This document shows positions 14,587-58,720 of a stretch of DNA of 64,000 nt, piece after piece (position 1 is the first letter of the stretch; each line of letters starts with the position of its first letter). The position numbers and the translations under genes were made by a program. Under the pieces are notes generated by a model. The model was not told the DNA's origin. It did no database searches and saw only the letters and a list, made by a program, of their open reading frames with translations. The DNA is from Patescibacteria group bacterium (lineage in GTDB: Bacteria > Patescibacteriota > Microgenomatia > Levybacterales > UBA12049): the NCBI GenBank assembly GCA_023484045.1, contig JAMDAA010000035.1, forward strand, positions 10,966-74,965, in the 5' to 3' direction.

Positions 14587-14588
14587 TG

Positions 14589-36364: not shown

Positions 36365-37495
36365 ATGAGTTACCTCTTGCCTCTTATAAAAAATGCTGAT
36401 GTTAAAGGTAAAACTGTTCTTCTTCGATTAGATTTGGATGTTCCGATCGTACAACTCAAAATTCAAAATTCAAAATCAGAAATTAAAATAGAGGACAAAG
36501 AGCGCCTGGAATCGGGATTAGCGACGATTAGGTATTTAACTAAACACGGGGCGGAAATAATTATTGCTGGACATTTGGGTCGTCCAGAAGGAAAGGATGA
36601 AAATTTCTCCCTACGACCCGTAGCAAAGTGGTTTGCGAGAAAAGTAGGATATAGTCAAATTCATCCTCGTAAATTTGGAATTTTTAACGGTTGGCGTCTT
36701 ACAGAAAGAATTTCGATTCTTGAGAATCTGAGGTTTTTTAAAGGAGAGGAGAGAGACGATAAACAGTTTTCAAAAGAATTGGCATCTCTTGCAGATGTTT
36801 ATATCAACGATGCGTTTGCAGTGAGTCATCGGACTCACGCTTCGATCGTCGGAGTTCCAGCGATTTTGCCCCATTTTGCGGGAATTCATTTTGCAGAAGA
36901 AGTAGAAATTTTAGGAAATGTATTAAAGCGCCCAAAAAGGCCGCTTATTGTAATAATCGGAGGAGCAAAACTCGAAACAAAACTACCACTCGTCGAAAAA
37001 ATGCACCGTTTTGCCGATTACGTCCTGATCGGAGGAAAGATCGCACGGGAAACACGAGTTTTGTTAAAGGTGGCCCATGAAAAAATTTATCCTCAAGCTG
37101 GCAGGAAAAGATCGGTTCTTTTGATCGCTGATTCAAATTTTAACGGTACTGACATTTCCGAAAAGAGTGTTGAAAATTTTTGCCAGATAGTAGTTTTAGC
37201 AAAAACGATTATTTGGAATGGACCGATGGGAATTATCAAGAATTCAGAATTCTCGCCTCGCGGCGAAGCGGGCAGAATTCAGAATTCAGAAGATACGGAA
37301 AAAGGGACGAGGAAATTGGCAAAAGCGATTACAGAGAGCAAAGCATATTCGATCGTCGGCGGCGGAGATACATTAGCTTATCTTAAAAAAATTGATCTAC
37401 TAAATAAATTCGACTTTTGTTCGATGGGCGGGGGAGCGATGCTTTCATTTTTAGCCGGCGAAAAAATGCCGGGGATTGAGGTACTCGAAAAATAA
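36365..37495 (+). CDS. pgk: Phosphoglycerate kinase with two in-frame low-complexity insertions
   Basis: ADVKGKTVLLRLDLDVP, IIAGHLGRPEGK and GGGDTLAYL motifs. Insertions at about 36455-36492 (VQLKIQNSKSEIKIE) and 37237-37290 (KNSEFSPRGEAGRIQNSE). Confidence 0.85.
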   Translation: MSYLLPLIKNADVKGKTVLLRLDLDVPIVQLKIQNSKSEIKIEDKERLESGLATIRYLTKHGAEIIIAGHLGRPEGKDENFSLRPVAKWFARKVGYSQIHPRKFGIFNGWRLTERISILENLRFFKGEERDDKQFSKELASLADVYINDAFAVSHRTHASIVGVPAILPHFAGIHFAEEVEILGNVLKRPKRPLIVIIGGAKLETKLPLVEKMHRFADYVLIGGKIARETRVLLKVAHEKIYPQAGRKRSVLLIADSNFNGTDISEKSVENFCQIVVLAKTIIWNGPMGIIKNSEFSPRGEAGRIQNSEDTEKGTRKLAKAITESKAYSIVGGGDTLAYLKKIDLLNKFDFCSMGGGAMLSFLAGEKMPGIEVLEK

Positions 37496-38596
37496 TTACT
37501 CAAAAAAACTTTTATAAAACGACGTGCTTCTTTGAATCGCTGTTTCCCAACTGCCATTATTAAAATTGTGATTCTCTCCGGGGTATGTGTGATAAGTAAC
37601 ATTTTTTCCGAGTTTTTTAAGCTCGTCTACTAATTGGTTAGACCATTTTTGAGGAACTGCTTCATCGTCTCCGCCTTGATGAATTTCAATCGGCGCGTTT
37701 ATCCAGGAGAAATAATTAGTTAGCGAATAGAGTTCAATATCATAACCTTTTTCAAAATCAGCGATAATTTTCCTTAAATACTTTCCGTGGTCATCTAATT
37801 CGTCGGTGTAATAAAAAATCGAATAAGGAAAAGGTTTTGAAACAGGAGCCCAAAGCACAGTCGGGTACCTTCGGCCGGTTATTTCTAAAATAGATAAAGC
37901 AATTTGACCTCCGTTACTGTGTCCCCAAATTCCAACCTTTTCATAATCTGCCTTAGTTTCACTATTAACATTTATTAAGCCTTCATTTATGTTTTTAATC
38001 GAAGAAAGTAAAGTTAGGGCAGTTGTGTATGTTTGAAATCTATCTTCGAGCGAATCAGTCGAGGCAGGAGAGGATTCACTGTAACCTAAAAAATCGGGCG
38101 CTAAAGTTATAAATCCGTTTTGGGCAAAATATTCTCCACCGTGTTGTGTTCCGACTCCAAAATCATAAATTTCTTTATCGACATATCCCCGAAACATAAC
38201 AATTACCGGATACGCGCCTTGTTTTTTCGGGATATTCGCGAGTCCGCTGACTTTTTTAGCTTGCCCTGAGCTCTTCGAGTCTGAGCTTGAGGGTTCCTCC
38301 CTCAGAGTCGAATGACCTGTCGAAGGGACATCAAAATAAAAAACCCGCGAGGTATAATCGGGAGTTTCTTTTATGATCTTTCCAAAAGTGATCGGACTTT
38401 CTTTCCAGCCAGAGGCTGGTCCGCCTTTGGCGGAAAAAGTTTTTTTTAAGTTTTCGAAACTGTATTTTTCAAACTTTTTTTCTTTGATATTGCTTAAAGG
38501 ATTTATTAGAGGTTTTTGTTGCTGACTAAGTAAATAAATTACGCCGATAAGAGCTAAAAAAACGAGGGAGTATACAAGATATATTTTTTTCATCAT
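37496..38596 (-). CDS. Secreted alpha/beta-hydrolase (esterase/peptidase-like) with an in-frame 68-bp repeat-element insertion
   Basis: GHSNGG nucleophile elbow and an N-terminal TM/signal. The insertion at 38260-38327 encodes HSTLREEPSSSDSKSSGQAKK. Confidence 0.6.
   Translation of the reverse strand: MMKKIYLVYSLVFLALIGVIYLLSQQQKPLINPLSNIKEKKFEKYSFENLKKTFSAKGGPASGWKESPITFGKIIKETPDYTSRVFYFDVPSTGHSTLREEPSSSDSKSSGQAKKVSGLANIPKKQGAYPVIVMFRGYVDKEIYDFGVGTQHGGEYFAQNGFITLAPDFLGYSESSPASTDSLEDRFQTYTTALTLLSSIKNINEGLINVNSETKADYEKVGIWGHSNGGQIALSILEITGRRYPTVLWAPVSKPFPYSIFYYTDELDDHGKYLRKIIADFEKGYDIELYSLTNYFSWINAPIEIHQGGDDEAVPQKWSNQLVDELKKLGKNVTYHTYPGENHNFNNGSWETAIQRSTSFYKSFFE
38260..38327. repeat. GC-rich repeat element, long form (CTTGCCCTGAGC - internal hairpin - CTGTCGAAGGG), in-frame in the esterase gene
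   Basis: cttgccctgagc tcttcgagtctgagcttgagggttcctccctcagagtcgaatgac ctgtcgaaggg. The termini are identical to the 23-bp short form at 14075 and 14215. The internal segment has a ctcagagtcga/tcgagtctgag inverted repeat. Confidence 0.7.
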
Positions 38597-38669
38597 TCCT
38601 ATTATATATGTTTTTAGGACTTGAAGTCATAAACTTTTATTTATATACTCATATTGAGGAATTCGAAAT

Positions 38670-39722
38670 ATGACACGCGTTGCGATTAACGGCTACGGAA
38701 GAATCGGAAGGATCACGCATAGAGTAATTTTAGAAAAATACAATTCCGAAATCGAAGTTGTCGCGATAAATGCAGGTTCATCGACGGATATAAAGGGTTG
38801 GATGTACCTGTTAAAATACGATTCTGCATACGGGCCACTCAATAAGAATTTAGAATCTAAAATTCAGAATTCAGAATTAAATAATTCGATAGGGTCGCTC
38901 ATTATCGACGGAAAGGAAATTCCGGTTTTTTCTCAAAAAGATCCGTCTTTACTTCCTTGGAAGGATTTAAATGTTGATGTTGTTGTCGAATCGACCGGAG
39001 AATTTGAAAAGGAAGAAGAATTAAAAAAGCACATAACCGCGGGGGCAAAAACAGTCGTTTTATCAGCGCCATTAAAAGAGGGAACTTCTCCGACCTATGT
39101 TATTTCCGTAAACGATAAGGATTACAAAGGCGAAAATATTATTAGCAATGCCTCGTGTACAACAAATTGTATCGCGCCCGTTGCAAAGATTATGATCGAA
39201 CATTTTGGGGTCGAAAAAGCGATGATGACAACAATTCATGCTTACACTTCCGATCAAAGACTTCAGGACGGCGGTCACAAAGATTATAGACGGGGAAGGG
39301 CGGCTTCTCAAAATATTGTTCCAACTTCAACCGGCGCGACAAAAGCCGCGGCAAAGGCATTGCCGGAATTACAAGATAAATTTTCTGGCCTTGCGATAAG
39401 AGTCCCGGTAATCATCGGATCGCTTTCCGACTTTACGTTTCTTCTTAAAAAAGAAACAACGGTCGACGAAATTAACAGTGTGTTTAAGCAAGAATCTCAA
39501 AATTCGGCATATAAAGGAATTTTGACAGTGAGCGAAGATCCTTTAGTTTCATCCGACATAATCGGAAATTCAAACTCTTCGATCGTCGATTTGTCGCTTA
39601 CCCAAGTTGTTGGTGGCAATATGGTAAAAGTTGTCGCGTGGTACGATAATGAATATGGTTATGCGTGTCGACTCGTCGAGGAAGCAATAATGGTTGGAAA
39701 GGGGATTAACTCCGCTCAATGA
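38670..39722 (+). CDS. gap: Glyceraldehyde-3-phosphate dehydrogenase with one in-frame heptamer-repeat insertion
   Basis: NGYGRIGR and SNASCTTNC catalytic motifs. Insertion at about 38846-38885 (NLESKIQNSELNNS). Confidence 0.85.
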   Translation: MTRVAINGYGRIGRITHRVILEKYNSEIEVVAINAGSSTDIKGWMYLLKYDSAYGPLNKNLESKIQNSELNNSIGSLIIDGKEIPVFSQKDPSLLPWKDLNVDVVVESTGEFEKEEELKKHITAGAKTVVLSAPLKEGTSPTYVISVNDKDYKGENIISNASCTTNCIAPVAKIMIEHFGVEKAMMTTIHAYTSDQRLQDGGHKDYRRGRAASQNIVPTSTGATKAAAKALPELQDKFSGLAIRVPVIIGSLSDFTFLLKKETTVDEINSVFKQESQNSAYKGILTVSEDPLVSSDIIGNSNSSIVDLSLTQVVGGNMVKVVAWYDNEYGYACRLVEEAIMVGKGINSAQ

Positions 39723-40309
39723 GTACTCCTATTGAACTTCCAAATATAAAAAATATTACAGTTTCTGGAAGAATCGGTGCTGGCGCTACGACTCTTGCTA
39801 AAAAACTTGCAGAAAAATTAAACTGGCGGGTTTTAGAGGGCGGGGATTTATTTGAAAAGATCCATAAAGAATTAGGGCTGAGTCAGACAGAAGTTTTAAA
39901 AAGACCGGACCATTTTGATTTAGAGTACGAAGAAAAAGTAAAAAAAATACTTAGAGAAGAATCTCATCAGATCGTCCAAAGTCATTTGGCAGGATTTGAT
40001 GCCCGGGGAATCGAAGGAGTTTTTAAGATTTTTATTGACTGTGAAGATAGTGAGGGTAATGATAAACCGGAGATTCGAATCGACCGTTTAATTAACCGCG
40101 ACGGGATTTCGATAGAAAATGCCAAAGAAGAGGTATTTGATCGGGAAAAACAACACACAGAAAAATGGCGAAGACTTTATGCCGGAAGCGACCCAAATTG
40201 GGTTTATTGGGATAAAAAATATTACGATTTAGTAATTAATACTTACTCGCATAACCAGGAAGAAACTCTCAAACTCGCCCTTTCAGCGATGGGATATAAG
40301 CGGATTTAA
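39719..40309 (+). CDS. Cytidylate-kinase-like / AAA-type nucleotide kinase family protein
   Basis: P-loop GRIGAGATTLAKKLAEKL, about 190 aa. 4-nt overlap with the gap stop. Confidence 0.5.
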   Translation: MSTPIELPNIKNITVSGRIGAGATTLAKKLAEKLNWRVLEGGDLFEKIHKELGLSQTEVLKRPDHFDLEYEEKVKKILREESHQIVQSHLAGFDARGIEGVFKIFIDCEDSEGNDKPEIRIDRLINRDGISIENAKEEVFDREKQHTEKWRRLYAGSDPNWVYWDKKYYDLVINTYSHNQEETLKLALSAMGYKRI

Positions 40310-40310
40310 A

Positions 40311-41204
40311 TTAAACCTTCAATCCTTTGCAAATAGCTACTGGGATCATTGTAAGAGGACCAGATTTGCCCCAAAGATATTTATAGTCAGGAGCTGTTTT
40401 AAGTCTACTTTTTCGAAGCATAATCTCGTCAAAATATGGGTTAAGTAATTCATATTGTTGTGCGATCATCTGTCCTTCCGAGCCGATCTCAGCACCTGGA
40501 ACGTTTGGATAAAATGCAAATATGCCATCTGGGAGAAGCATCTCGGAGAGCGTAGGAAGATATAATAAATCATTTATTCCTCTGTCCTCTGGTCTTAGAG
40601 GAAAGGTATCTGAAATTATTATATCGAACTTTTTGCGTCTTTCAGCAAGGCTTTTCGCTACTTCACCTGCCTCGCCGTTATATAAAACTATTTTTATAAT
40701 TGGTTTTGTACCCGGTACTTCATGTGATGTGCCCGTAAAACTTTTTTCCCATCTCTCTTTCCATTTTTCGGATCTTTCGTAGACATCTTTATTTAGTTCA
40801 ACAACACGGTATTCTCCTCTTCCGCGACCCACTAATTTCTGAATTACGCGGTTACCAGTTATACCAATTCCAAAACCTAATTCTAAAACTCTAACAGGCG
40901 CTTTTCTATCTCTTATAAGTTGATCAAAAGCGAGACTTACGGTATCACTACACCATGGAGTTTCGCACGTATCCATGACCTGATTACCCATAATAATTAG
41001 TCTTGTTCCAGCATCATAGTCATAAAAAGTCCCGTCTCCGTAATAAAATCTGCCTTTAGGATAGCTAATATATTCTGCCTTGGCATTTCTCCATACTTCA
41101 ATTGGATTACCGGTTTCCCCATCTTTACCACCATCATGATTTCTGTTTCCATTAAATATTGCCTGCGCCGTTAATTGTTGTAGTACTTCTGGATTAACAC
41201 TCAT
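40311..41204 (-). CDS. SAM-dependent methyltransferase-like protein (spermidine-synthase-like fold?)
   Basis: VRVLELGFGIGITGNRV GxGxG-type motif with a later DIIISDTF acidic motif. Weak. Confidence 0.4.
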   Translation of the reverse strand: MSVNPEVLQQLTAQAIFNGNRNHDGGKDGETGNPIEVWRNAKAEYISYPKGRFYYGDGTFYDYDAGTRLIIMGNQVMDTCETPWCSDTVSLAFDQLIRDRKAPVRVLELGFGIGITGNRVIQKLVGRGRGEYRVVELNKDVYERSEKWKERWEKSFTGTSHEVPGTKPIIKIVLYNGEAGEVAKSLAERRKKFDIIISDTFPLRPEDRGINDLLYLPTLSEMLLPDGIFAFYPNVPGAEIGSEGQMIAQQYELLNPYFDEIMLRKSRLKTAPDYKYLWGKSGPLTMIPVAICKGLKV

Positions 41205-41344
41205 AATAATTTAATATTGTGTCTGCGTATTCTATAGCGAGTACGATTATAAGTCAAGCGTAGATAAGCCATCTATTGGATGAATAATTAAGATATTGCA
41301 AAGCAATATTTTATAAGATACAATTTCAATGCAAAATTAAATTT

Positions 41345-42367: not shown

Positions 42368-42617
42368 TTTATACTCGTGCAATCTTTGATTTCATCGGCG
42401 ATAAGTGGAGTTTCAAAACGATGAATAGCACGATAATAACCTATATTGGAAAAAAAGAGATTACTGAAATATTAAATAAATTTGGTTTTTTAAAAGTAAA
42501 ATTTTACGGAGGTCAATTTTATGGTCCTTTATTTAAGGAGCCGTTTAAGCCCTTGGAGAGCGACTGGTTGAATGTTGTGGCGAAAAGATAAATTTATTTG
42601 ACATAGTAATATAAAAG

Positions 42618-43187: not shown

Positions 43188-43397
43188 TTGTTACTGAAAA
43201 GTTCTTAATTGTTTATTTTTTTTACTCACGTACCTAACCCAAAAATACACTTATTCTAATAGTCCTATATTTTTTTTACTCTATTTTTTTCCCGTTAATG
43301 AAACTTTGAAAAACCGAGGCTAGAAAAATAACTGACTAATTTTGATATATTTATTGATAGTTGACACGGCAGATCTAGGGTCATATTATTTGTCTTG

Positions 43398-43895: not shown

Positions 43896-46397
43896 ATGAA
43901 ACTTGACGGAATAAGACAACAGGTATTTTTAGACAGATACGCCTTAAAAGATAAAAAAGGACATCCGATTGAACAAGCTCCAGATGAAATGTGGCAAAGA
44001 GTCGCGCGTGGTGTTTCTCAGGCTGAAAAAAAAGAAGACAGAAAACTTTGGGAGAAAAAATTTGTCGACGCGATGAAGGATTTCAAATTTGTACCGGGCG
44101 GGAGAATTTTGGCTGGCGCTGGAACCGGTTTTGACGTAACATTTTATAATTGTTTTGTTTTGCCTTCTCCCGCCGATTCAAGAGACGGAATTTTGGATAA
44201 TCTTAAATCGATGATCGAGATTATGGCGCGGGGCGGAGGTGCGGGGATTAATCTTTCTTCTCTTAGGCCTCGCGGAGCGAGGGTTAAAAAAGTAAACGGA
44301 TTTTCATCGGGGCCGTGTAATTGGGCAGAGCTTTATTCGATCGCGACTCATGACATTATTCAACAAGGAGGATCAAGGCGAGGCGCTTTGATGCTCATGC
44401 TCTGGGACTGGCATCCGGATATAGAAGAGTTTGTTACTGTAAAACAGGATTTAAGAAAAATAACGGGCGCTAATCTTTCGGTTTGCGTATCCGATAGATT
44501 TATGGAAGCGGTAAAAAAAGATGAAAATTGGGATTTAGTATTTCCTGACCTTTCAGATAAAGATTACGACGAAAAGTGGGACGGAGATTTAACTACCTGG
44601 AGAGCATTAAAAAAGAAAGTAAAAGTATACAAAACAATAAAAGCTAGACATCTTTGGAATTTAATTTGTGAGGCCGCGTGGAAAAGCGCTGAACCTGGAA
44701 TCGTTTTTATGGAACGCTACAATAAAATGTACAACAATTGGTATTGGAACAGGGTTAATTGTACAAATCCGTGTGGAGAAGAAGGACTTCCGGCGTGGGG
44801 CGTATGTAATTTAAGTTCGCTCAATCTTTCGGCTTTTGTAAGGGGTTATTCTGTCGACAAGCCGGGAGAGATGGATTATAAAAGTTTGGCAGAACACGCA
44901 AAAATCGGAGTAAGGCTTCAAGACGACGTGATTAATATTGATAGTTACGCTTTCCCCGAAATCAAAGAGATGCAGGTAAACGGAGAGCGAAGAATCGGTC
45001 TCGGGACTTTGGGACTCGGCGACGCGCTTATAAAGATGCATCTTCGCTATGGATCGGATAAGTCGCTTAAAGTGATCGAAAAAATTTTCAAAACAATAAG
45101 AGACGCGGCGTATGAAGCGTCGACAGAAATCGCGAAAGAAAAAGGTGCTTTCCCGAAATTTAACGCGACAAAATATCTAAAAGGATATTTTATAAAAAAA
45201 CTTCCAAAAAATCTTCGAGACAAAATCAGAAAATACGGAATCAGAAATTCGCTTCTTTTGCAGGAAGCACCCACCGGCTCAACGAGTCTTTTATCCGGAG
45301 TTTCGTCCGGTATCGAACCGATTTACGAATTCGAATTTATCAGAAAAGACAGACTTGGTGAACATAAGATGTTTCACCCCCTTTATGAAGAATGGAAAAA
45401 AGCCCATCCGAATTCACTAACTAGTGAAAGACCCGATTATTTTGTTTCGGCGAATGATTTAACACCGGAGGATCATGTAAAAGTTCAATCGACAATTCAG
45501 CAATACGTCGATGCGTCGATTTCTAAAACCGTTAACGCGCCAAAAATACACACGGTAGAAGATGTTAAAAAATTGTACGAGCTCGCGTATAAACTCGGTT
45601 GTAAAGGAATTACATACATGAGGGAGGGTTCAAGAGAAGGGGTTCTGACAAGAATCGATGCTTCGGCAAGCTCAGCACAAGAGAAAAAAGAAGAACAGCC
45701 GGTTGCTACTACACAAGTGGTTTATTCTCATAAACCGATGGTTGCGCGGCCGGAAAGAGCAGAAGGAGTTACTTACAGAACTCAAACCCCGATCGGCGAA
45801 GCGTTTATTACGATAAATCACGATGAAAACAAAGAACCGTTTGAAATGTTTATTACGATCGGAAAATCGGGGTCAGATATTGCCGCGATGGCAGAGGCGC
45901 TAGGCAGAATAGTATCGTTGAACTTAAGACTTTCAGGCGGGCTTTCCCCGCGCGAGAGAGTTAGACAGGTTATCGCTCAGCTTGCCGGAATCGGCGGTGC
46001 AAGAAGTGTTGGGTTTGGTAAAGAAAAAGTTAGGTCTTTACCCGATGCAGTCGCAAAAGTTTTAGCGAGACATTTTAACTTTTCTGTAAACGGTAAAGTC
46101 GAAGATAAAAAAATGGTCGCAGTAACAAACGGAGAAGCAAAAGAGATGGTCGAAAAACAAGATCAGAGAGTAATTAAAAACGGAGAAAGTAAATTAGATG
46201 TTAAAGAATTTAAAGAAAAACAAGATATTATTATGCTTCAACAGCTTTCTATCGAAGGACAAGCGAGTGGTTTGTCGCTTGAGCATTCTTCGACCAGCAC
46301 GAGTCTTTTTGATGTGTGTCCGGATTGCGGAAGCGGAAGTTTAGCGTACGAAGAAGGCTGTAGAAAATGTTACAGCTGTGGTTATTCAGAATGTTAA
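43896..46397 (+). CDS. nrdJ: Class II (adenosylcobalamin-dependent) ribonucleotide reductase
   Basis: 833 aa. The N-terminal region and the C-terminal Cys cluster (CPDCGSGSLAYEEGCRKCYSCGYSEC) are typical of NrdJ. Small in-frame insertion at 45661-45685 (ASASSAQEK). Confidence 0.85.
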   Translation: MKLDGIRQQVFLDRYALKDKKGHPIEQAPDEMWQRVARGVSQAEKKEDRKLWEKKFVDAMKDFKFVPGGRILAGAGTGFDVTFYNCFVLPSPADSRDGILDNLKSMIEIMARGGGAGINLSSLRPRGARVKKVNGFSSGPCNWAELYSIATHDIIQQGGSRRGALMLMLWDWHPDIEEFVTVKQDLRKITGANLSVCVSDRFMEAVKKDENWDLVFPDLSDKDYDEKWDGDLTTWRALKKKVKVYKTIKARHLWNLICEAAWKSAEPGIVFMERYNKMYNNWYWNRVNCTNPCGEEGLPAWGVCNLSSLNLSAFVRGYSVDKPGEMDYKSLAEHAKIGVRLQDDVINIDSYAFPEIKEMQVNGERRIGLGTLGLGDALIKMHLRYGSDKSLKVIEKIFKTIRDAAYEASTEIAKEKGAFPKFNATKYLKGYFIKKLPKNLRDKIRKYGIRNSLLLQEAPTGSTSLLSGVSSGIEPIYEFEFIRKDRLGEHKMFHPLYEEWKKAHPNSLTSERPDYFVSANDLTPEDHVKVQSTIQQYVDASISKTVNAPKIHTVEDVKKLYELAYKLGCKGITYMREGSREGVLTRIDASASSAQEKKEEQPVATTQVVYSHKPMVARPERAEGVTYRTQTPIGEAFITINHDENKEPFEMFITIGKSGSDIAAMAEALGRIVSLNLRLSGGLSPRERVRQVIAQLAGIGGARSVGFGKEKVRSLPDAVAKVLARHFNFSVNGKVEDKKMVAVTNGEAKEMVEKQDQRVIKNGESKLDVKEFKEKQDIIMLQQLSIEGQASGLSLEHSSTSTSLFDVCPDCGSGSLAYEEGCRKCYSCGYSEC

Positions 46398-46410
46398 GAT
46401 CAAAAATCAA

Positions 46411-46454
46411 CCCTTCGATTTCGCCAAGTCAGACTTGGCTTCGCTCAGGGCAAG
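46411..46454. repeat. GC-rich repeat element (inverted orientation, with ccaagtcagacttgg palindromic insert), intergenic after nrdJ, flanked by TCAAAAA-type heptamers
   Basis: cccttcgatttcgccaagtcagacttggcttcgctcagggcaag. Its reverse complement begins cttgccctgagcgaag. Flanked by gatcaaaaatcaa and gaattcaaaaatcaaaactacaagttaaaactcaaaag. Confidence 0.65.
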
Positions 46455-46519
46455 AATTCAAAAATCAAAACTACAAGTTAAAACTCAAAAGTGTTAAAAT
46501 CAGAAAGATAAATTTAAAT

Positions 46520-46717: not shown

Positions 46718-47320
46718 ATGACAAAAATCTATACAAGAAAAGGAGATAAAGGAAAAACTTCTCTTTTTGGCGGAAAATGTGTTCAAAAATCAAATTCCCG
46801 GGTCGAAGCTTACGGGACAGTAGACGAATTAAATAGCGTGATTGGAATCGTTATTACTCAAGTTCAAAAATCAAAACTTCCTCCTTCGCTAAAGCTTCGG
46901 AGGACAAGCAAATCTCAAAACCATATCTTAAAGCTCAAAAATGAGTTGACCGAGATTCAAAAGGATTTATTTGAGATAGGAACAGAGCTTGCAGATCAAA
47001 AATCAGAAGTCAAAAATCAAAAACAACTCGCAGAGAGGATTGAAAAAATTGAGAAAGAGATCGATGAGATGGCGGAGCAACTGCCGGAAATTCACAATTT
47101 TATAATTCCCGGCGGGGGAGAAGCGGGGTCACTTCTTCACTTTTGTCGGGCAATCTGTCGGAGAGCAGAAAGAAGAGTGGTTGCATTGTCGAAAAAAGAA
47201 AAAATAAACAAAGAAATTCTCATTTATCTAAATCGTCTTTCGGACTTTTTGTTTATATCAGCACGATTTGTAAACAAATTAGAAAATAAAAAAGAAATAG
47301 TTTGGAGAAAAGAAATATGA
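46718..47320 (+). CDS. PduO-type ATP:cob(I)alamin adenosyltransferase, with two in-frame low-complexity insertions
   Basis: MTKIYTRKGDKGKTSLFGGKCVQKSNSRVEAYGTVDELNSVIG matches the PduO/MMAB N-terminus. Insertions are QVQKSKLPPSLKLRRTSKSQNHILKLK and ADQKSEVKNQKQ. Confidence 0.75.
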   Translation: MTKIYTRKGDKGKTSLFGGKCVQKSNSRVEAYGTVDELNSVIGIVITQVQKSKLPPSLKLRRTSKSQNHILKLKNELTEIQKDLFEIGTELADQKSEVKNQKQLAERIEKIEKEIDEMAEQLPEIHNFIIPGGGEAGSLLHFCRAICRRAERRVVALSKKEKINKEILIYLNRLSDFLFISARFVNKLENKKEIVWRKEI

Positions 47321-52336: not shown

Positions 52337-52346
52337 GCAGTTAAAG

Positions 52347-52418
52347 GGGCTCGTAGCTCAGCGGGAGAGCGGTTGTCTTATAAACAACAGGTGCTTGGTT
52401 CGACCCCAAGCGGGCCCA
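52347..52418 (+). tRNA. tRNA-Ile (anticodon TAT)
   Basis: GGGCTCGTAGCTCAGCGGGAGAGCGGTTGTCTTATAAACAACAGGTGCTTGGTTCGACCCCAAGCGGGCCCA. Anticodon stem GTTGT/ACAAC, loop CTTATAA. Confidence 0.75.
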
Positions 52419-52470
52419 CTTCGAATCCAAGCGGACGCACAAGTAAATCTCAAATCTCAAAAATCAAATC

Positions 52471-52860
52471 TCAAATCTGAGAAGCGATAGATTTAACTCT
52501 TATGATCTCATATTTATTCCATTTTTCTTGAAAATCAATCATAATTGATATCTCATCATTTGTTAATTCAATGTTTTTGGGAACCACAATTAATTTATCG
52601 TCATCATCGTTCAATCTATGGATTACAGCAATGACCTTGCCTTTTACCCGATTAACAGGAGTATTCACCCCAAGAAAATATACGTCTAATTCTTCTCCGT
52701 CTGGAGCTTTTGTATTTGGTATATATCCATAATTAGCTAAATATAAAAAACCATGCTTAGGATGTTTAGTTCCAAGTGGTCTATCGATAAAAACCTCCAC
52801 CTCTTTTCCTAAATATTTTGAAGCCATCAAAAAAGATCGCGTTTTATTTTTCATAAGCAA
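52471..52860 (-). CDS. ppa: Family I inorganic pyrophosphatase-like protein (short form)
   Basis: LANYGYIPNTKAPDGEELDVYFLG...GKVIAVIHRLNDDDDKLIVVP aligns with the PPase core (NYGYIxxTLxxDGDPVDVLV ... GVLxMxDExGxDxKLVAVP). It is about 45 aa shorter than E. coli Ppa. Confidence 0.5.
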   Translation of the reverse strand: MLMKNKTRSFLMASKYLGKEVEVFIDRPLGTKHPKHGFLYLANYGYIPNTKAPDGEELDVYFLGVNTPVNRVKGKVIAVIHRLNDDDDKLIVVPKNIELTNDEISIMIDFQEKWNKYEIIRVKSIASQI

Positions 52861-52917
52861 AATTATAACATCTTTGTAAATTTTAAGCTAAAAAAATTAG
52901 ATGAGTCTACTTTTTCG

Positions 52918-53778
52918 TTAAAGTTCTATGAGGTGAGCGTTTTCTTTTGCGCGGTCTTTAACAAACTCCAAATATCTTTCTGTTGTCGAAAGTCTTTTGT
53001 GTCCCAAAATCTTTGAAAGTATAACCAGAGAAACACCGTGTTTTAAATGATGGGCGACGAAAGTGTGTCGGAGGTCGTTTACTTTTGCATTTTTTATGTC
53101 ACAAAGTCTAAAGTAACGTTCGATCGCGGTTCTTATATTTCTTATTAAAAACGGCTTGCCTGATTTTGTAACAAAAATCCGGTCTTCTTTAACTTCTGGT
53201 CTTGCTTTTATGTAGCTATCTAAGGCATCTTTCGCAGCTTTGTTTAAAGGAACAATTCTTTCTTCGTGTTTTTCAAACGCCTGAATTCTTAAATTATCGC
53301 CGTTCATATCCGAAAGACGAAGACCCGCTAATTCTCCGATCCTTATGCCTGTTTGCAAAAGGAGTTCGATAACGGCAAACATCCTGCAATCGTTTCTTGC
53401 AGCATCCCGTAAGGCTCTGTATTCAGTCGGGGCTAAAATTCGGGGTGGGGCAAGTTCATATCTTGGATGATTTATCAAAAGAGAGGGGTCCTCTACGACA
53501 TACTCATTACTCTTTAAAAACCTATAAAACGTACGTGTTGAGTTAATTTTTCGTGAGATTGATTTCGGCGTGTATCCATCTTTTGATAATTTCGCCAAAA
53601 AAGCCTCGAGATTCTCTTTTGTAGCCTCATGAATATTGTTTTTCGATAATTCCTCTAAGAATAGAACTAACTGCTCGATATCTTTCCCATATGCTACAAT
53701 GGTAGAGTTCGAGTGATGTTTTTCTTTGAGAAAATTCTTAAATTGAACGTGGGCATCTCTAACTTTTATTATTTTCAT
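52918..53778 (-). CDS. Tyrosine recombinase, XerC/XerD / phage-integrase family
   Basis: N-terminal SAM-like core-binding domain. Catalytic region has RIGELAGLR (R), HTFVAHHL (HxxR) and LSTTERYLE (Y). Confidence 0.8.
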   Translation of the reverse strand: MKIIKVRDAHVQFKNFLKEKHHSNSTIVAYGKDIEQLVLFLEELSKNNIHEATKENLEAFLAKLSKDGYTPKSISRKINSTRTFYRFLKSNEYVVEDPSLLINHPRYELAPPRILAPTEYRALRDAARNDCRMFAVIELLLQTGIRIGELAGLRLSDMNGDNLRIQAFEKHEERIVPLNKAAKDALDSYIKARPEVKEDRIFVTKSGKPFLIRNIRTAIERYFRLCDIKNAKVNDLRHTFVAHHLKHGVSLVILSKILGHKRLSTTERYLEFVKDRAKENAHLIEL

Positions 53779-53828
53779 TAGAATTTAATAAAGCCTATAA
53801 TATCAACAAACGTTAAGATAGTCAAGAT

Positions 53829-54173
53829 GTGAAAAAAATATTATTTTTCACGGTTTTAATCGCATCGATCTTTATAATAAACGGCCTAGTACGCTCGATT
53901 TGCGGTCTTTGGCAAAAACAGGGGTTAGTCGCGACCGCACAAAAAGAACTCGATCGGCAAAAACAGGAAAACAAAAATCTTAAAAAAAAGCTCACAGAAG
54001 TCCAAAATCCTAAATTTCTAGAAGAGCAGGCGAGAAACAAGCTGCTTTTGGTTAAAGAGAATGAGCAGGAAGTAATAATCCCGAAAGAATTCTTGGGAGC
54101 TTCGGATTCAGCTAGGGGGAAAAAGAGCGATTCGCGGCCAAACTGGCAAAAATGGTGGGATTTATTTTTCTAG
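53829..54173 (+). CDS. FtsB/DivIC-like septum-formation initiator
   Basis: N-terminal TM, a coiled coil (ELDRQKQENKNLKKKL) and NPKFLEEQARNKLLLVKENEQEVIIP, like the FtsB C-terminal motif. Confidence 0.6.
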   Translation: MKKILFFTVLIASIFIINGLVRSICGLWQKQGLVATAQKELDRQKQENKNLKKKLTEVQNPKFLEEQARNKLLLVKENEQEVIIPKEFLGASDSARGKKSDSRPNWQKWWDLFF

Positions 54174-54176
54174 AAA

Positions 54177-54422
54177 TTAGATTTTTAAACCTAAAATTTT
54201 CATCTTTTTATCTCTCCTCCAACCTTTAATTTGGCTCTCTCTTTTTAGGGCTGCAAATTTTGATTCAAGTGGTTCGGCATAAAGTAGTTTTACTGGTTTA
54301 TGAGACCTTGTGTATCTCCCGCCTTTCCCATTTTTATGATCCACAAATCTTGCATCGGGATTATTTGAGGAACCCGTATATAAACTGCCGTCAGAGCATA
54401 GAATAATGTAAACGAACCACAT
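54177..54422 (-). CDS. GIY-YIG nuclease-domain protein (UPF0213-type)
   Basis: MWFVYIILCSDGSLYTGSSNNPDARFVDHKNGKGGRYTRSHKPVKLLYAE... has the classic GIY...YTG...R...H...G...E pattern. Confidence 0.75.
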   Translation of the reverse strand: MWFVYIILCSDGSLYTGSSNNPDARFVDHKNGKGGRYTRSHKPVKLLYAEPLESKFAALKRESQIKGWRRDKKMKILGLKI

Positions 54423-54685
54423 AAAAGTGCTTGCACTGAACGGAGCGAAGCCTAGAAAAAGATATGTCCTTCGATAAACTCAGGACAATTCGCCGCTTCT
54501 ATTCTAAATGCTTGCAATGAGCAAGCCCGAATGAAATGAAGGGCGCGTCGAATTGTTGCGGGGCTGGGAGTTGCGCCCAGCCTGTGAGATTATGAGCCTC
54601 ACGTGCACTGTACACTACCCCGCGCGTGCGTACTATTATAACAATTGATTTCACCTTGGTCAACCTGATATACTTTGATCTGAAA

Positions 54686-54762
54686 GCCAGGGTAGCTCAG
54701 TCGGTAAGAGCACAGCATTCATAACGCTGAGGTCGTGGGTTCGATTCCCACCCCTGGTACCA
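54686..54762 (+). tRNA. tRNA-Met/Ile2-type (anticodon CAT), CCA encoded
   Basis: GCCAGGGTAGCTCAGTCGGTAAGAGCACAGCATTCATAACGCTGAGGTCGTGGGTTCGATTCCCACCCCTGGTACCA. Whether it is elongator Met, initiator or lysidine-Ile2 cannot be decided from the sequence. Confidence 0.8.
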
Positions 54763-54852
54763 TAAAGCAGAACAAGTTCGCTTTATGGCCATGAAGTGAT
54801 CTTTGATCTACTTCATTGGCTATTAATGTTTCTTTCGAATCAATAGAAACAA

Positions 54853-55158
54853 ATGTCAAAACTTACGCATTGTGTTTACGTTTTGTTTAGTTTAAAAGAT
54901 AAAAATTTTTATATTGGATCTTCTTCAAATTTAAAGTCAAGATTAACGGACCATTTTAATGGAGAAGTTAAAAGCACTTTGTTCAGAAGACCATTTAAGC
55001 TTATTTTTTGTGAATATTTTTTATCTAAAAAAGATTCGTTAAGGAGAGAAAAATATTTTAAAACGACTTCAGGAAAAAAGGCATTAAAATTAATTATTAG
55101 AAAATCGCTTGATGAATTAATGCCTAAATTGGTTTCAAGAAATGCAAATTCTGTCTAA
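54853..55158 (+). CDS. GIY-YIG nuclease-domain protein (second intact paralog)
   Basis: ...CVYVLFSLKDKNFYIGSSSNLKSRLTDHFNGEVKSTLFRRPFKLIFCEYF... Confidence 0.7.
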   Translation: MSKLTHCVYVLFSLKDKNFYIGSSSNLKSRLTDHFNGEVKSTLFRRPFKLIFCEYFLSKKDSLRREKYFKTTSGKKALKLIIRKSLDELMPKLVSRNANSV

Positions 55159-55161
55159 ATT

Positions 55162-55950
55162 ATGAATAATCAGCCGATCGGTGTTTTTGATTCTGGAGTT
55201 GGGGGATTAAGTATCCTCTCCGAAGTTAAAAAAAAACTACCAAAAGAAAACTATATTTTTTTAGCCGACCAGGCCCATGTTCCTTACGGCGAAAAAACAG
55301 GAGAAGAGCTCAAAATTCTTGTTTCCAAAATTATCGATTTTTTTATCAGAAAAAAAGTTAAAATGGTCATTTTCGGTTGCAACACGGCGACTGTCTACGC
55401 GATCGATTTTTTAAGGAAAAGATATCCGATTCCGCTTGTCGGTGTGGTTCCTGTTATAAAAACGCTCGCGGAACATACAGTAAGTAATAAAGTAGGGGTT
55501 TTATCCACGCCAGCGACGAGTAAAAGTCCGTATCTTAAAAAATTGATAAATGAATTTGCAAATGGAATAAAAATTTATAATGTCGGCGGAAACGGACTCG
55601 AAAATTTGGTCGAGGAGGGGAAAATAGATGATCAAAAGACAAAAAAAGTTTTATCGGAAATTCTTACGCCGATGATTAAAAAAGGCGTTGATTGTATCGG
55701 TCTTGGCTGTACTCATTACCCGTTTTTAAAAGATGAGATTCAAAAAATCGTCGGATCTAAGATTTCTATTTTTGATTCGGGAAAGGCCGTCGCTAAAAGA
55801 GTAGACGAAGTATTATCAAAAAAGAATATAAAAGGAAATAAAAGAACAGGAGATTTATATTACACAACCGGAGATCCAAAAGAATTTAAAAGAGTAGCAG
55901 AAAAGCTATTGTCGCATAAGTTAGATAATGTTTCTACGGCGATAATTTAA
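55162..55950 (+). CDS. murI: Glutamate racemase
   Basis: PIGVFDSGVGGLS ... FGCNTATV ... GCTHYPFL motifs. Confidence 0.85.
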   Translation: MNNQPIGVFDSGVGGLSILSEVKKKLPKENYIFLADQAHVPYGEKTGEELKILVSKIIDFFIRKKVKMVIFGCNTATVYAIDFLRKRYPIPLVGVVPVIKTLAEHTVSNKVGVLSTPATSKSPYLKKLINEFANGIKIYNVGGNGLENLVEEGKIDDQKTKKVLSEILTPMIKKGVDCIGLGCTHYPFLKDEIQKIVGSKISIFDSGKAVAKRVDEVLSKKNIKGNKRTGDLYYTTGDPKEFKRVAEKLLSHKLDNVSTAII

Positions 55951-55953
55951 TAT

Positions 55954-57498
55954 ATGAATTTTAAAAATAAACCCTACGACGTTGAAACTTTGCAGGGCAA
56001 GAAAATAGCGGTTATTGGGCTTGGGGTAGAGGGGGAATCAAGCGTGAGATACTTGAAAAAGCAGGGCGCAGAAGTTACTGTTTTGGATAAAAAAGATAGT
56101 GAGGATTATCTTAAAGATCTTGACAAATACGATTTGATCGTTAGAAGCCCCGGGGTTCAATTGAATAAAATTCAGAATTCAGAATTCAGAATTCAGAATT
56201 CGATTATAACCTCTCAGACAAAACTTTTTTTTGATCTTTGCCCTTGTAAAATTATCGGAGTAACGGGGACAAAGGGAAAAGGAACAACTTCTTCATTAAT
56301 TTATGAAATGCTAAAAAAATCCTTCGACTCCGCTCAGGACAAGGCAGAGAAAAATGTGTATTTAGGCGGTAATATTGGACAGCCGCCGCTTGATTTTTTG
56401 AACAAATTAAATGATCAATCTTTAGTAGTCCTAGAGTTATCGAGTTTTCAGCTTCAAGACCTTACAAAGAGTCCGTACATAGCAGTTGTCTTAATGATAA
56501 CTTCGGAACATCTCGATTATCACAAAGATATTGATGAGTACGTCGACGCAAAAAGAAATATCTTAAAATTTCAGACAGCGTCAGATTTTGCAATTGTTAA
56601 TCGGGATTATCCGGCGAGCAATGAATCGGATATTCAAACAGAAGGAAAAGTGTATTTTGTAAGTAGGGAAAGAGAGGTCGAAGAAGGGTGTTTTGTAAAG
56701 GACGGAAAAATATTCATAAGACTTGGTACTGAAGTGACCCGCTCGCCGCTGAGGTCGGCTTGCCAGTTCGACGAGTTTTCGAACGCAAGCGTCCCTGCGG
56801 TCGCCTCAGGCGACCTCGGGATACGCTCCGATGTTCATCGGAGTCTAGCGAAAACATCGTCTCATGGTAAGCCTCCCCGCGGCGACCCGCGCTCTTCTCA
56901 ATATCCTAATATCTTTGAAGAACAAGTGATCGATACAAACGACATTCTTCTTCCCGGTACGCATAATTTGGAAAATGTATGCGCCGCGGTTATGGCGGCA
57001 ACATTGTCAGGAGTTTCAAAACAAAATATTATTCATGTTCTTAAAACTTTTAAAGGTTTGGAACATAGGCTCGAGTTGGTAGATGAGATCAACGGCGTTT
57101 CGTATTACGATGATTCGTTTTCTACGACTCCAGAGACCGCGATCGCCGCGATTCAGGCGTTTAAACAGCCGAAGATATTAATTCTTGGAGGATCGAGTAA
57201 AGGGAGCGATTTTACAGAACTCGGTCAAATTATTTCAAAAGACGAAAGTATAAAAGCGATTATCGGAATCGGAGAAGAATGGAGCCGCATGAAAGCGGAA
57301 TTTCCAATTTCCAATTTCCAATTTCCAATTATCGAAGGGGCGAAGAATATGTTGCAGATAGCTCAGGCGGCTTCGAAAATCGCAAAACCAGGGGACGTTG
57401 TACTTTTGACTCCGGCCTGCGCGAGTTTTGGGATGTTTAAAAACTACAAAGACCGCGGAGAACAATTTAAGAGAGAGGTCGAAAAACTTAAAAATTAA
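55954..57498 (+). CDS. murD: UDP-N-acetylmuramoyl-L-alanine--D-glutamate ligase with several in-frame repeat insertions
   Basis: GKKIAVIGLGVEGES and VTGTKGKGTT P-loop; DDSFSTTPE and LILGGSSKG C-terminal motifs. Insertions at 56169-56202 (AATTCAG x5), 56321-56346, about 56735-56900 (a 160-bp GC-rich nested palindrome) and 57301-57329 (TTTCCAA x4). Confidence 0.8.
   Translation: MNFKNKPYDVETLQGKKIAVIGLGVEGESSVRYLKKQGAEVTVLDKKDSEDYLKDLDKYDLIVRSPGVQLNKIQNSEFRIQNSIITSQTKLFFDLCPCKIIGVTGTKGKGTTSSLIYEMLKKSFDSAQDKAEKNVYLGGNIGQPPLDFLNKLNDQSLVVLELSSFQLQDLTKSPYIAVVLMITSEHLDYHKDIDEYVDAKRNILKFQTASDFAIVNRDYPASNESDIQTEGKVYFVSREREVEEGCFVKDGKIFIRLGTEVTRSPLRSACQFDEFSNASVPAVASGDLGIRSDVHRSLAKTSSHGKPPRGDPRSSQYPNIFEEQVIDTNDILLPGTHNLENVCAAVMAATLSGVSKQNIIHVLKTFKGLEHRLELVDEINGVSYYDDSFSTTPETAIAAIQAFKQPKILILGGSSKGSDFTELGQIISKDESIKAIIGIGEEWSRMKAEFPISNFQFPIIEGAKNMLQIAQAASKIAKPGDVVLLTPACASFGMFKNYKDRGEQFKREVEKLKN
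56169..56202. repeat. (AATTCAG)x4 plus one degenerate unit, a perfect heptamer microsatellite in-frame in murD
   Basis: aattcagaattcagaattcagaattcagaattcg encodes KIQNSEFRIQNS. Confidence 0.85.
56735..56900. repeat. About 160-bp GC-rich nested-palindrome insertion inside murD (in-frame, no stop codons)
   Basis: Palindromes seen: gcttgc...gttcgacgagttttcgaac...gcaagc, gtcgcctcaggcgac and ctccgatgttcatcggag. Encodes TRSPLRSACQFDEFSNASVPAVASGDLGIRSDVHRSLAKTSSHGKPPRGDPRSSQ, which is absent from MurD orthologs. Confidence 0.6.
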
Positions 57499-57499
57499 C

Positions 57500-58720
57500 A
57501 TGAGTAAGTTTGGTTTCGACATTTCTTTTAAAGATAAATCTTCACGCGCCCGGATCGGAAAAATCTCGACCCCGCACGGCGTTATCGAAACTCCGGCGTT
57601 TACCCCAGTCGGTACTCAGGCGTCGGTTAAATCATTAGACCCGAAAGATTTAAAAGAAACGAAAACCCAAATATTTTTTGGCAATACTTACCATTTACAT
57701 TTAAGGCCGGGGGAAGAGGTTGTTAAAAAATTTGGCGGATTGGCAAAATTTATGGGATGGGATGGACCGACGATTACGGACAGCGGGGGTTTTCAGGTTT
57801 TTTCGCTTGCTCAAAAAAAAGGAAGATCGCGCAATCAGGAAGAAGAAATTAATCTGGTTAAGATTACAGAAGACGGGGTTGTTTTTCGTTCGCATATAGA
57901 CGGAAGCTTACACGAATTCACCCCCGAAAAATCGATCGAGATACAAAAGAATTTGAGCGCGGATATTATTTTAGCGTTTGATCAATGTCCGCCGTATCCG
58001 GCAAGTTATGAAGACGCCAAAAAAGCGATGGACAGAACGCACGAATGGGCAGTTCGTTGCCTAAACTCAAAGCTCAAAGCTCAAAAGTCAAAACTACAAC
58101 TTAAAATTCAAAACTTTAATCAGGCGATTTATGGGATAGTTCAGGGTTCGGTTTATGAGGATTTAAGAAAAGAGTCGGCAAAATTCATTGGCGATCTTGC
58201 CCTGAGCGGAGTCGAAGGGTTTGACGGGATTGCCATCGGCGGAGTCGCGGTCGGAGAAAGTAAAGTTGAAATGCTGCGAGCTGTTGAATGGGTGGTTCCG
58301 CTTTTGCCAGAAGAAAAACCCCGGCATTTGTTGGGCGTTGGGGAAGTGGATGATATTTTTGAAATTATTGAGCGCGGAATCGATACTTTTGATTGTGTTA
58401 TTCCGACAAGACTCGGAAGAACCGGATTCTTGTTTGTCGGGCCAAAAGAGGGGAACATTAAAAACCGATTTAGAATCGACATTAATAAATCGGTTTTTGC
58501 CAAAGACCAAGAACCGGTGACCAAAAATTGCAATTGTTATGTCTGTCAAAATTTTACCCGCGGCTATCTCAATCATTTATTTATAGGTAGAGAGCTTCTC
58601 GCATATAGACTTGCGAGTTATCACAATATTTACTTTATTAACGATCTCGTCGAAAAAATAAGGAACGCAATTTTAAACGGAGAGTTTAAAAAGATGAAAA
58701 GAGAATGGCTGGAAGCGTAA
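57500..58720 (+). CDS. tgt: Queuine tRNA-ribosyltransferase
   Basis: FGFDISFKDKSSRARIGKISTPHGVIETPAFTPVGTQASVK and the zinc site CxCxxC...H (CNCYVCQNFTRGYLNHL). In-frame insertions at 58063-58117 and 58196-58219. Confidence 0.85.
   Translation: MSKFGFDISFKDKSSRARIGKISTPHGVIETPAFTPVGTQASVKSLDPKDLKETKTQIFFGNTYHLHLRPGEEVVKKFGGLAKFMGWDGPTITDSGGFQVFSLAQKKGRSRNQEEEINLVKITEDGVVFRSHIDGSLHEFTPEKSIEIQKNLSADIILAFDQCPPYPASYEDAKKAMDRTHEWAVRCLNSKLKAQKSKLQLKIQNFNQAIYGIVQGSVYEDLRKESAKFIGDLALSGVEGFDGIAIGGVAVGESKVEMLRAVEWVVPLLPEEKPRHLLGVGEVDDIFEIIERGIDTFDCVIPTRLGRTGFLFVGPKEGNIKNRFRIDINKSVFAKDQEPVTKNCNCYVCQNFTRGYLNHLFIGRELLAYRLASYHNIYFINDLVEKIRNAILNGEFKKMKREWLEA

Follow-up and report, generated by a model that had tools for sequence, protein, structure and literature searches.

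We analysed 64 kb of DNA (the window; contig JAMDAA010000035.1, 64,000 nucleotides) from a groundwater bacterium of the candidate phyla radiation (CPR), in which AT-rich tandem repeats of 7 nt (heptamers) run in frame through pgk, gap, murD, tgt and pduO. Microsatellites whose unit is not a triplet are as a rule kept out of essential genes. We conclude that two classes of small repeat are probably superimposed at these sites: arrays of heptamer simple sequence repeats (SSRs) and dispersed GC-rich cores, one nested in the other. The host is one of the Patescibacteria, from a Levybacteria-like lineage, and the nearest relatives come from Levybacteria and Microgenomates metagenome-assembled genomes. 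Its MurD is identical to an NCBI protein annotated as that of a Patescibacteria group bacterium, and an exact look-up of this MurD matched no contig. The window has a GC content of 38% and a coding fraction of ~0.88. Orthologous sites were compared at the DNA level with four fetched relatives (L081-L084), which have in common with the window the gene order nrdJ-pduO-...-xerC-divIC-murI-murD-tgt-trpS-ftsH. The repeat features of the window are collected in Table 1.

Period 7 dominates the tandem repeats of this DNA. With the criterion relaxed to a match of 80% or more over three units, a scan found 11 period-7 arrays, as against none or one at each of periods 8-11, and two and three at periods 5 and 6, which were counted with a slightly different filter; 20 shuffles of the window gave 0-1 arrays. 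Array density in the window is ~17 per 100 kb. When perfect repeats were required across periods 4-12, five arrays remained, all of period 7. Tandem Repeats Finder placed period-7 arrays at 36456-36489, 37273-37291, 38845-38878, 46995-47023, 52445-52478 and 58063-58115 and, within murD, at 56169-56201 (AATTCAG x4.7) and 57299-57330 (AATTTCC x4.6), both with 100% matches. Every tract reported in the initial annotation of this DNA was recovered at the place it gave or only a few bases away. AGAATTC or GAATTC is not enriched window-wide (19 occurrences, 23 expected), and its excess is limited to the arrays.

Eight of the 11 period-7 arrays lie inside intact genes (two in pgk, one in gap, one in pduO, two in murD, one in tgt, and two in signal peptides), and the class is therefore neither predominantly intergenic nor scarce in coding sequence. 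The intact host open reading frames (ORFs) were matched to PGK, Gp_dh_N/C, Mur ligase, TGT and Cob_adeno_trans in Pfam; therefore the tracts are translated in frame, as the heptapeptide-periodic, low-complexity segments that had been proposed (KIQNSK-, RIQNSEF-, FPISNFQ-, KAQKSKL- and KNQKSKI-type). Arrays with an A-rich sense strand encode polar peptides rich in K, Q, N and S, and those with a T-rich sense strand encode F/L/I-rich signal-peptide cores; reversed orientation would give stop codons in 10 of 11 coding arrays. The two signal-peptide cores, encoded at 13219-13256 and 25112-25152, read FFLSSIFYLLFSI and IIFFFIFNFLFFVF and are N-terminal in minus-strand genes. In AlphaFold2 models, the pgk composite of array and core (residues 294-308) has a predicted local distance difference test (pLDDT) score below 50, and the remaining tracts, a large murD insert aside, are modelled with moderate confidence.

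Phase variation is classically built on non-triplet SSRs within ORFs, where slippage by a single unit would switch a contingency locus, a dispensable surface or virulence gene, on or off. However, the genes concerned here would be pgk, gap, murD and tgt, of which we found only one copy each in the window and the syntenic loci. All alleles seen are in frame, and the polymorphisms are 3-unit steps. We therefore regard phase variation as very unlikely. We give next to no credence to an origin in sequencing or assembly error, a doubt that the initial annotation had itself raised. Assemblers can collapse or expand short repeats, but a second assembler returned the same sequence: the Logan assembly of run SRR10252151 (L087) matches window positions 34889-38876 with 100% identity over 3,988 nt, a stretch that includes both pgk tracts and the core. 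Orthologous arrays are also present in many independent metagenomes, and all host ORFs are intact.

The tracts had been described as inserted, and alignment with orthologues supports this for pgk, gap, tgt and pduO but not for murD. Relative to solved structures, the added residues number 9 at pgk site 1, 15 at pgk site 2, ~9 in gap, ~6-7 in tgt and ~17 or more in the pduO region. The first pgk array adds the same 9 residues relative to the closest PGKs (P0156 and P0157) and to PDB 3uwd, and both pgk tracts are missing from the two closest PGKs, which are 73% and 68% identical. The tgt tract is present in L082 and absent from L081, where the gene is 27 nt shorter, and its position in L083 is occupied by a GC hairpin instead. 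A supposed array-induced frameshift in tgt of L084 was rejected, as that locus simply does not contain tgt. In murD, the length difference from solved MurD is 0 at site 1 and only 3 residues at site 2, and site 1 has five units at the same place and of the same length in the window, L081, L083 and L084. The murD tracts are thus length-neutral and occupy the same positions in relatives, and most tracts are therefore old inherited arrays rather than recent insertions. Alignments of PGK, GAPDH and MurD show the same few loop positions to be heptapeptide-periodic in many Levybacteria, with array-free states scattered among the PGK and GAPDH sequences, and tract-free relatives retain intact genes (L081, P0156, P0157, P0341 and P0314). 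These comparisons indicate that the tracts are inherited hot spots, common to many relatives.

Arrays are patchily distributed. We counted 10 period-7 arrays in 20 kb of L082, eight in L084 and three in L083, and an array scan of L081, L001 and L002 found no period-7 arrays. They also occur in loci assigned to Thermodesulfovibrionales, Nitrospirae, Acidobacteriota and Doudnabacteria, in some cases inside murD. The loci outside Levybacteria are L025, L029, L044, L046, L058, L069 and L073; those with arrays inside murD are L025 (at 10494), L029 (at 10250 and 10398) and L046 (at 10883). Units that resemble those of the window (AAATTCA, AAATTTC and AATTCCA) are found in these distant loci.

Between close alleles, array length varies in steps of 21 nt. 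At array site 1 of PGK, the indel is exactly 7 residues in all three length-variable clusters (at least 90% identity), the residues being QQTTNNK, IQDSEFR, and SESGVNS or SKSGIQD. Two loci whose genes are 93% identical, L209 and L210, differ by (CAACAAA)x5, 35 nt, in one and 14 unrelated bases in the other, a net gain of 21 nt. Both observations uphold the earlier suggestion that only 3-unit changes are tolerated. Unit sequence is much freer. Site 2 of murD has, at the same place in five genomes, AATTTCC, AATTTTC, AAATCCG/AAATCAG, AATAACG and a degenerate AAAACTA, and unit identity is 0.71-1.0 within arrays and 0.07-0.86 between orthologous arrays. That each lineage has its own homogeneous unit at murD site 2 implies concerted evolution; each lineage homogenises its own unit and the overall length is kept. 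Taken with the length-neutral overwriting in murD, the L209/L210 replacement indicates a history more complex than stepwise extension.

A group of four MurD sequences (P0037, P0130, P0133 and P0137; alignment A2) shows a further pattern around site 1. Their ~400 C-terminal residues are essentially identical, with isolated single differences, and the first ~100 residues differ at many positions, with the switch at or near the heptamer site. The pattern points to recombination mosaics that have their breakpoints close to the array. The four also differ in the presence or absence of a 10-residue core, SPLRQGFEGQ, and of a 15-residue N-terminal core.

The second pgk tract is interrupted by a GC-rich core of 21 nt (the 21-mer), which belongs to the other class of repeat. 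Over 3.58 kb, the only differences between two ENA contigs of near-identical strains, L085 and L086, are 2 SNPs and one 21-nt indel within murD. The insert matches the pgk core, in inverted orientation, at 20 of 21 positions and sits in the centre of another copy of the same family. A PGK only 59% identical to that of the window (L088) carries the identical 21-mer at a matching junction (..TTC/core/A.AATTC), there within an AAAATTC array and in another frame, so that it reads LASRRSGQ where the window reads SPRGEAG. The closest PGKs are without the 21-mer, though it is present in the window and L088. Three observations set the size of the unit: the L085/L086 indel, the way in which the 21-mer fits between heptamer units, and the tandem run in L172, where five copies follow one another without spacers. 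Thus, the 21-mer is a discrete unit and, to judge from these comparisons, apparently mobile.

The exact 21-mer was found in at least 120 metagenome contigs with a GC content of 33% to 68%, and the statements on its contexts that follow hold among the matches listed. It lies in the centres of GC palindromes (for example CCTGCCTGC/21/CGGCAGGCAGG), between the units in six or more further heptamer arrays (AATTTCC, AAAACTC, AAAAGTC, TAATTTC, AACTTTC and others) and nested inside another copy of itself at GC/GAAG, and in 116 independent contexts it is mostly without heptamer arms. These kinds of context come from inspected contexts and position-specific counts, automatic sorting having left 97 as "other". 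The base before the 21-mer is C in 109 of the 116 contexts and the base preceding that is G in 86, a preference that alone accounts for insertion at array unit boundaries. Of 92 evaluable copies, ~45 fall within long ORFs, with all six frames represented. The sequence is exactly seven codons long and has no stop codon in any of the six frames, and its insertion therefore adds seven residues with neither truncation nor frameshift. In L124 and L186 it is nested three deep in itself, always at the GC/GAAG centre. Contigs with 61-68% GC that contain it exactly (L092, L099, L110, L116, L171, L196, L199 and L204) are clearly non-CPR, and several of them show similar nesting (cacgcctcgc/21/ggcgacgcgggc). 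The host range of the 21-mer thus seems far wider than Levybacteria.

A further possibility is that the repeats are kept for a function, as flexible linkers or signal-peptide cores in proteins or as pause, processing or terminator sites in RNA or DNA. The tracts keep their positions between lineages with only ~55-75% identity in MurD and PGK, the T-rich arrays suit signal-peptide hydrophobic cores, and many 21-mer palindromes, among the matches listed, are followed by T runs in the manner of intrinsic terminators. However, the five tract-free relatives named above keep intact genes, units change freely in sequence, structure prediction leaves the inserted segments disordered or with low confidence, and the same elements occur in both orientations and all frames. 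We consider maintenance for function unlikely.

A second family of cores (family 2; CCCTTCGAC..GCTCAGGGCAAG, 21-24 nt) is largely particular to the window, with ~9 copies there and one in the other 85 loci. Its copies lie in at least six genes and two spacers of the window, occupy three frames in the aldolase-like gene, and against orthologues are insertions in murD, tgt and nrdJ. A GC-island scan for further cores returned 136 islands, mostly ordinary coding sequence, and was dropped as too noisy. Family 2, the more abundant of the two cores, goes beyond the initial annotation, as does the large murD insert described below.

That annotation had read the AT-rich arm, GC-rich hairpin core and second AT-rich arm as a composite miniature element, which would transpose as a unit into genes and spacers. 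The window does hold three such arrangements (in pgk, in pduO and in the spacer 3' of nrdJ), and the pgk composite folds far better than shuffled sequence (z = -4.6), a fold whose strength follows from the self-complementarity of GAATTC. Yet arms and core do not travel together. The arms differ between composite copies and so do the cores; orthologous sites hold arrays without cores, as in most PGKs and in pduO of L084, which has only heptamers at the core-bearing site; and among the matches listed the 21-mer is heptamer-flanked in a small minority of the 116 contexts, the identical core appearing inside arrays of seven different units. With arrays found without cores, and cores without arrays, the supposed composite is therefore a nested insertion, of a small GC-rich element into an array already present, and we hold transposition of a single unit to be quite improbable. 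The description of the cores as hairpins stands for the pduO core (46878-46908), which bears a TCCTCC/GGAGGA stem, and for nested forms (z of -0.5 to -1.7), and fails for isolated cores, which fold no better than shuffles: the 21-mer has a folding energy of -4.9 kcal/mol (z = -0.27) and family 2 has z >0.

Table 1. Arrays, cores, cassettes and the large murD insert in the 64-kb window, in order of position
Feature	Positions	Strand	Unit, translation or remark
PF05635 ORF 2609-2974	2544-3015	-	inverted heptamer arrays on either side
PF05635 ORF 6552-6926	6500-6990	-	inverted heptamer-type arrays on either side
PF05635 ORF 8435-8806	8390-8859	-	inverted (AAAGTTC)n arrays on either side
T-rich-sense array	13219-13256	-	TTCTATC/TTCTATT; signal-peptide hydrophobic core
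Two family-2 cores, NUDIX-like gene	14075-14238	-	14075-14097 and 14216-14238; each PSTGSGQ
Family-2 core, spacer between two tRNA genes	14479-14501	-	
T-rich-sense array	25112-25152	-	TATTTTT; signal-peptide hydrophobic core
Family-2 core with nested/tandem copy, aldolase-like gene	27055-27125	+	PSTSSGQVPSASSLQQSSEQAGQV
Family-2 core, same aldolase-like gene	27372-27394	+	third frame, LRQAQDK
pgk array 1	36448-36492	+	(AAAATTC)n; VQLKIQNSKSEIK
pgk array 2, left part	37238-37252	+	AGAATTC units; register kept across core
21-nt GC-rich mini-element in pgk (21-mer)	37253-37273	+	TCGCCTCGCGGCGAAGCGGGC; SPRGEAG
pgk array 2, right part	37274-37292	+	AGAATTC x2.7
Nested family-2 core, hydrolase gene	38260-38327	-	68 nt
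gap array	38845-38885	+	degenerate AGAATTC/AAAATTC; NLESKIQNSELNN
Family-2 core, nrdJ	45660-45680	+	GCTTCGGCAAGCTCAGCACAA; exactly +7 residues vs L083 and L084
nrdJ 3' spacer	46398-46491	+	heptamers, nested family-2 core 46411-46454, heptamers
pduO array with core	46859-46942	+	heptamers 46859-46877, 31-nt GC core 46878-46908, heptamers 46909-46942
Second pduO array	46995-47023	+	(ATCAAAA)n
Intergenic array	52445-52478	+	(AAATCTC)n; shortly 3' of tRNA 52347-52418
Degenerate family-2 core, murD N-terminus	55972-56001	+	30 nt; PYDVETLQGK; among syntenic loci shared only by L083
murD array 1	56164-56205	+	(AGAATTC)x5; KIQNSEFRIQNS
Family-2 core, murD	56320-56343	+	TCCTTCGACTCCGCTCAGGACAAG; SFDSAQDK; +8 residues
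In-frame murD insert, GC-rich, strongly structured	56725-56905	+	~170 nt; resembles Rickettsia palindromic elements
murD array 2	57295-57336	+	(AATTTCC)x4.6; FPISNFQFP
tgt array	58061-58117	+	AAAGCTC/AAAACTC units; NSKLKAQKSKLQLKIQNF
Family-2 core, tgt	58196-58219	-	antisense in tgt; read LALSGVEG

Two further kinds of feature accompany the arrays and cores. The first is a ~170-nt murD insert at 56725-56905, which adds ~60 residues, folds strongly as RNA (z = -5.5) and is modelled with pLDDT <50 over residues 263-317. It has two intergenic homologues in L083 (18851-18904 and 21196-21283) and no match in Rfam at E <= 1, and many MurD orthologues have different inserts at the same site. Related peptide inserts (..TRSLNESR..STFSS..) occur in both murD and tgt of L082. 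The second is a set of three small ORFs of family PF05635, the 23S rRNA intervening-sequence protein, a bAvd-like four-helix bundle. As had been noted earlier, heptamers recur in spacers and, in inverted orientation, around these three ORFs, where the inverted arrays would form a long transcript stem, as in rRNA intervening sequences. PF05635 cassettes are also present in L083 (6746-7123) and L084 (20942-21310), with inverted flanks that are not clean heptamers, and a hidden Markov model built from five PF05635 proteins detected no others when run over 1.4 Mb of loci. Outside the window, an association of heptamer arrays with such cassettes is a lead only.

Under the reading that we favour, of two superimposed classes, the arrays are genuine heptanucleotide SSRs of the short tandemly repeated repetitive (STRR) or long-SSR kind, sited in spacers, in the flanks of small cassettes and in the loop- or signal-peptide-coding parts of housekeeping genes. 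They would turn over by slipped-strand or unequal exchange, with selection purging products that are out of frame or bear stops. The 21-mer would be copied in trans by some enzyme, and its length and stop-free frames would let it survive inside the genes of a genome that is ~88% coding.

Several observations weigh against this reading. Two unlinked arrays, at site 2 of pgk and site 1 of murD, are homogenised for the derived unit AGAATTC, of which gap holds one copy, and relatives carry AAAATTC where the window has AGAATTC in the pgk and murD arrays. The perfect 35-nt array that distinguishes L209 from L210 replaces unrelated bases and extends nothing, and in murD the arrays have taken the place of native sequence, the length changing by just 0 to 3 residues. 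Together, the unlinked AGAATTC arrays, this replacement and the overwriting point to ectopic conversion or a trans-acting process rather than simple slippage. Co-occurrence speaks for the reading, with 14.4 period-7 arrays per 100 kb in low-GC contigs that carry the 21-mer as against 4.9 in low-GC contigs sampled through MurD, but this comparison is uncontrolled for taxonomy. One 21-mer is, among the matches listed, exactly conserved across contigs of 33-68% GC. The L085/L086 junction is ambiguous by 2 nt (GC), and target duplication and microhomology copying fit it equally well. Cores alone are not exceptional hairpins, which leaves a model of hairpin recognition like that of repetitive extragenic palindromic (REP) elements without direct support. 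Finally, a mobilising enzyme was neither found nor systematically sought, the window being a small part of the genome; the Pfam scan took in 20 ORFs of the 64-kb window and showed no transposase among them, and no search was aimed at REP-associated tyrosine transposases (RAYT, of the IS200/IS605-like Y1 type).

The unlinked AGAATTC arrays, the replacement of native sequence and the exact conservation of one 21-mer could instead be read as the work of a trans-acting "writer", whether a retroelement, a recombinase or template-switching repair, that installs 21-nt modules consisting of either three heptamers or a GC core. Arrays and cores would then come from one machinery, possibly tied to the bAvd-like PF05635 cassettes, and not from slippage plus an unrelated element. 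Consistent with this, 21 nt is the common quantum of the GC core, the family-2 insert in nrdJ and the array indels; the same derived unit stands at unlinked loci of one genome; arrays replace native sequence; inverted arrays flank three PF05635 ORFs; arrays and the 21-mer are found on the same contigs; and close relatives are unevenly infested, from no arrays in L081, L001 and L002 to the ten of L082. However, selection on the reading frame alone predicts a 21-nt quantum in genes, many bacteria that have no system of this kind commonly carry heptamer SSRs, and PF05635 cassettes occur in only two other loci, where the flanks are inverted but not clean heptamer arrays. The window showed neither a reverse transcriptase nor a dedicated enzyme, and no systematic search was made. 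We judge a writer of this kind to be possible but doubtful. In its broader form, the idea is that a dedicated trans-acting system in CPR and other groundwater bacteria may write codon-neutral 21-nt modules into DNA, would continually remodel surface loops of essential enzymes, and might be linked to the PF05635 cassettes. We offer it as a tentative proposal with a low probability of being right.

We return to the two superimposed classes, each of which resembles known systems in part. The small dispersed repeats (SDR) of Nostocaceae were reportedly described by Elhai and colleagues in 2008 as "very small mobile repeated elements" of 21-27 nt, and are said to nest in tandem heptamer repeats and other small repeats. 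If so, the 21-mer would resemble them in being a dispersed, discrete unit of ~21 nt that encodes no protein, in having its mobility read from presence and absence, and in its nesting in heptamer and other small repeats. Size, presence/absence pattern and nesting are all found in the 21-mer. It differs in phylum, apparently in sequence, and in the ~45 of 92 copies, among the matches listed, that lie inside long ORFs. We thus consider SDR the closest analogue of the GC cores, as a probable functional analogue rather than as a family to which they belong. Where HIP1-rich cyanobacteria are discussed in PMC5861425, SDR-like repeats are given as not found outside Nostocaceae.

Rickettsia palindromic elements (RPEs) are non-autonomous repeats of ~150 bp found in frame in unrelated metabolic and housekeeping genes and in spacers, and the peptide segments that they add are compatible with the protein fold (PMC10969869). 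They are the precedent for repeats that enter housekeeping genes in frame. The ~170-nt murD insert is like them in its strong structure and its intergenic homologues in L083, and thus shows the pattern of a structured repeat of ~100-150 nt present in frame in genes and in spacers. The main elements here, at 21-24 nt or as 7-nt arrays, are unlike RPEs in size and come from another taxon, and the likeness is one of pattern. REP elements and their doublets (REPINs) are mobilised by RAYT transposases, and REPs are extragenic (PMC3116915). Our cores resemble them in being short, GC-rich, partly palindromic and dispersed, in forming nested or inverted doublets and in some terminator-like positions. 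Unlike REPs, they are often intragenic (about half of the evaluable 21-mers and at least six genes for family 2) and form weak hairpins when isolated.

Heptanucleotide SSRs are described as the commonest long SSR class in bacteria, with polymerase slippage as the proposed mechanism (PMC4679880, PMC4692102). The same papers follow Mrazek et al. 2007 on long heptamer SSRs, among them the cyanobacterial STRR repeats, and treat TAACTGA repeats in Beggiatoaceae, Cyanobacteria and Bacteroidetes and GGGNATC repeats in Xanthomonas and Nostoc (PMC4679880, PMC4692102). These two families are described as lying mostly in intergenic DNA and as under-represented in coding sequence (PMC4692102). The arrays of the window share with such SSRs the 7-nt units, set head to tail beyond chance, the dominance of period 7, the many dispersed arrays, the patchy, lineage-specific abundance and the strain-variable copy number. 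They differ in that 8 of 11 are translated, in housekeeping enzymes among others, where those families are mostly intergenic; in their orthologous hot spots and 3-unit steps; in units that are A/T-rich and stop-free where the described ones are G-rich or contain stops; and in a CPR host. A literature search on heptamer, in-frame or palindromic repeats of CPR bacteria, or the peptide motifs they encode, found nothing relevant. As far as that search reaches, these repeat phenomena appear to be without earlier description in CPR bacteria, although the kinds themselves are known elsewhere.

Other repeats and genes of the window can be noted briefly. A period-8 repeat, (ATTGTTNN)n, occurs as three similar spacer tracts of 35 nt (8351-8385, 29990-30031 and 36271-36311), one of them just upstream of pgk; the repeat may be a regulatory motif or represent a further class of SSR. 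Two adjacent minus-strand genes, 30699-32933 and 33020-35173 (744 and 717 residues), are tandem paralogues, with the repeat families D2, D3, D5, D15 and D16 recurring ~2,495 nt apart at 72-91% identity. At the gathering threshold, Rfam matched only tRNAs and a tmRNA in the whole window. The tmRNA gene (109.5 bits) adjoins smpB (regions 19947-20334 and 20370-20819), and eight tRNA genes lie at 13530-14662, 18486-18693, 52347-52418 and 54686-54759. A mechanically called ORF at 14354-14647 lies nearly all over tRNA genes and is probably spurious; the ORF at 13878-14393 overlaps a tRNA at its 5' end only.

Repeats that are tolerated, inherited and homogenised within pgk, gap, murD, tgt and pduO give direct evidence that selection filters repeat dynamics to 21-nt steps. 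The tracts inflate and diversify CPR protein lengths, with MurD ranging from 427 to 570 residues among relatives, and they can mislead alignments, phylogenies and structure prediction, while offering strain-level markers. The 21-mer is among the smallest candidate mobile elements, and suggests how repeats can last in reduced genomes dense with genes, namely because their translation does no harm. Identifying the process that copies it would extend very small mobile DNA beyond cyanobacteria. If a system that writes 21-nt modules were real, it would represent mobile DNA tuned to coding sequence in genomes almost without intergenic space.

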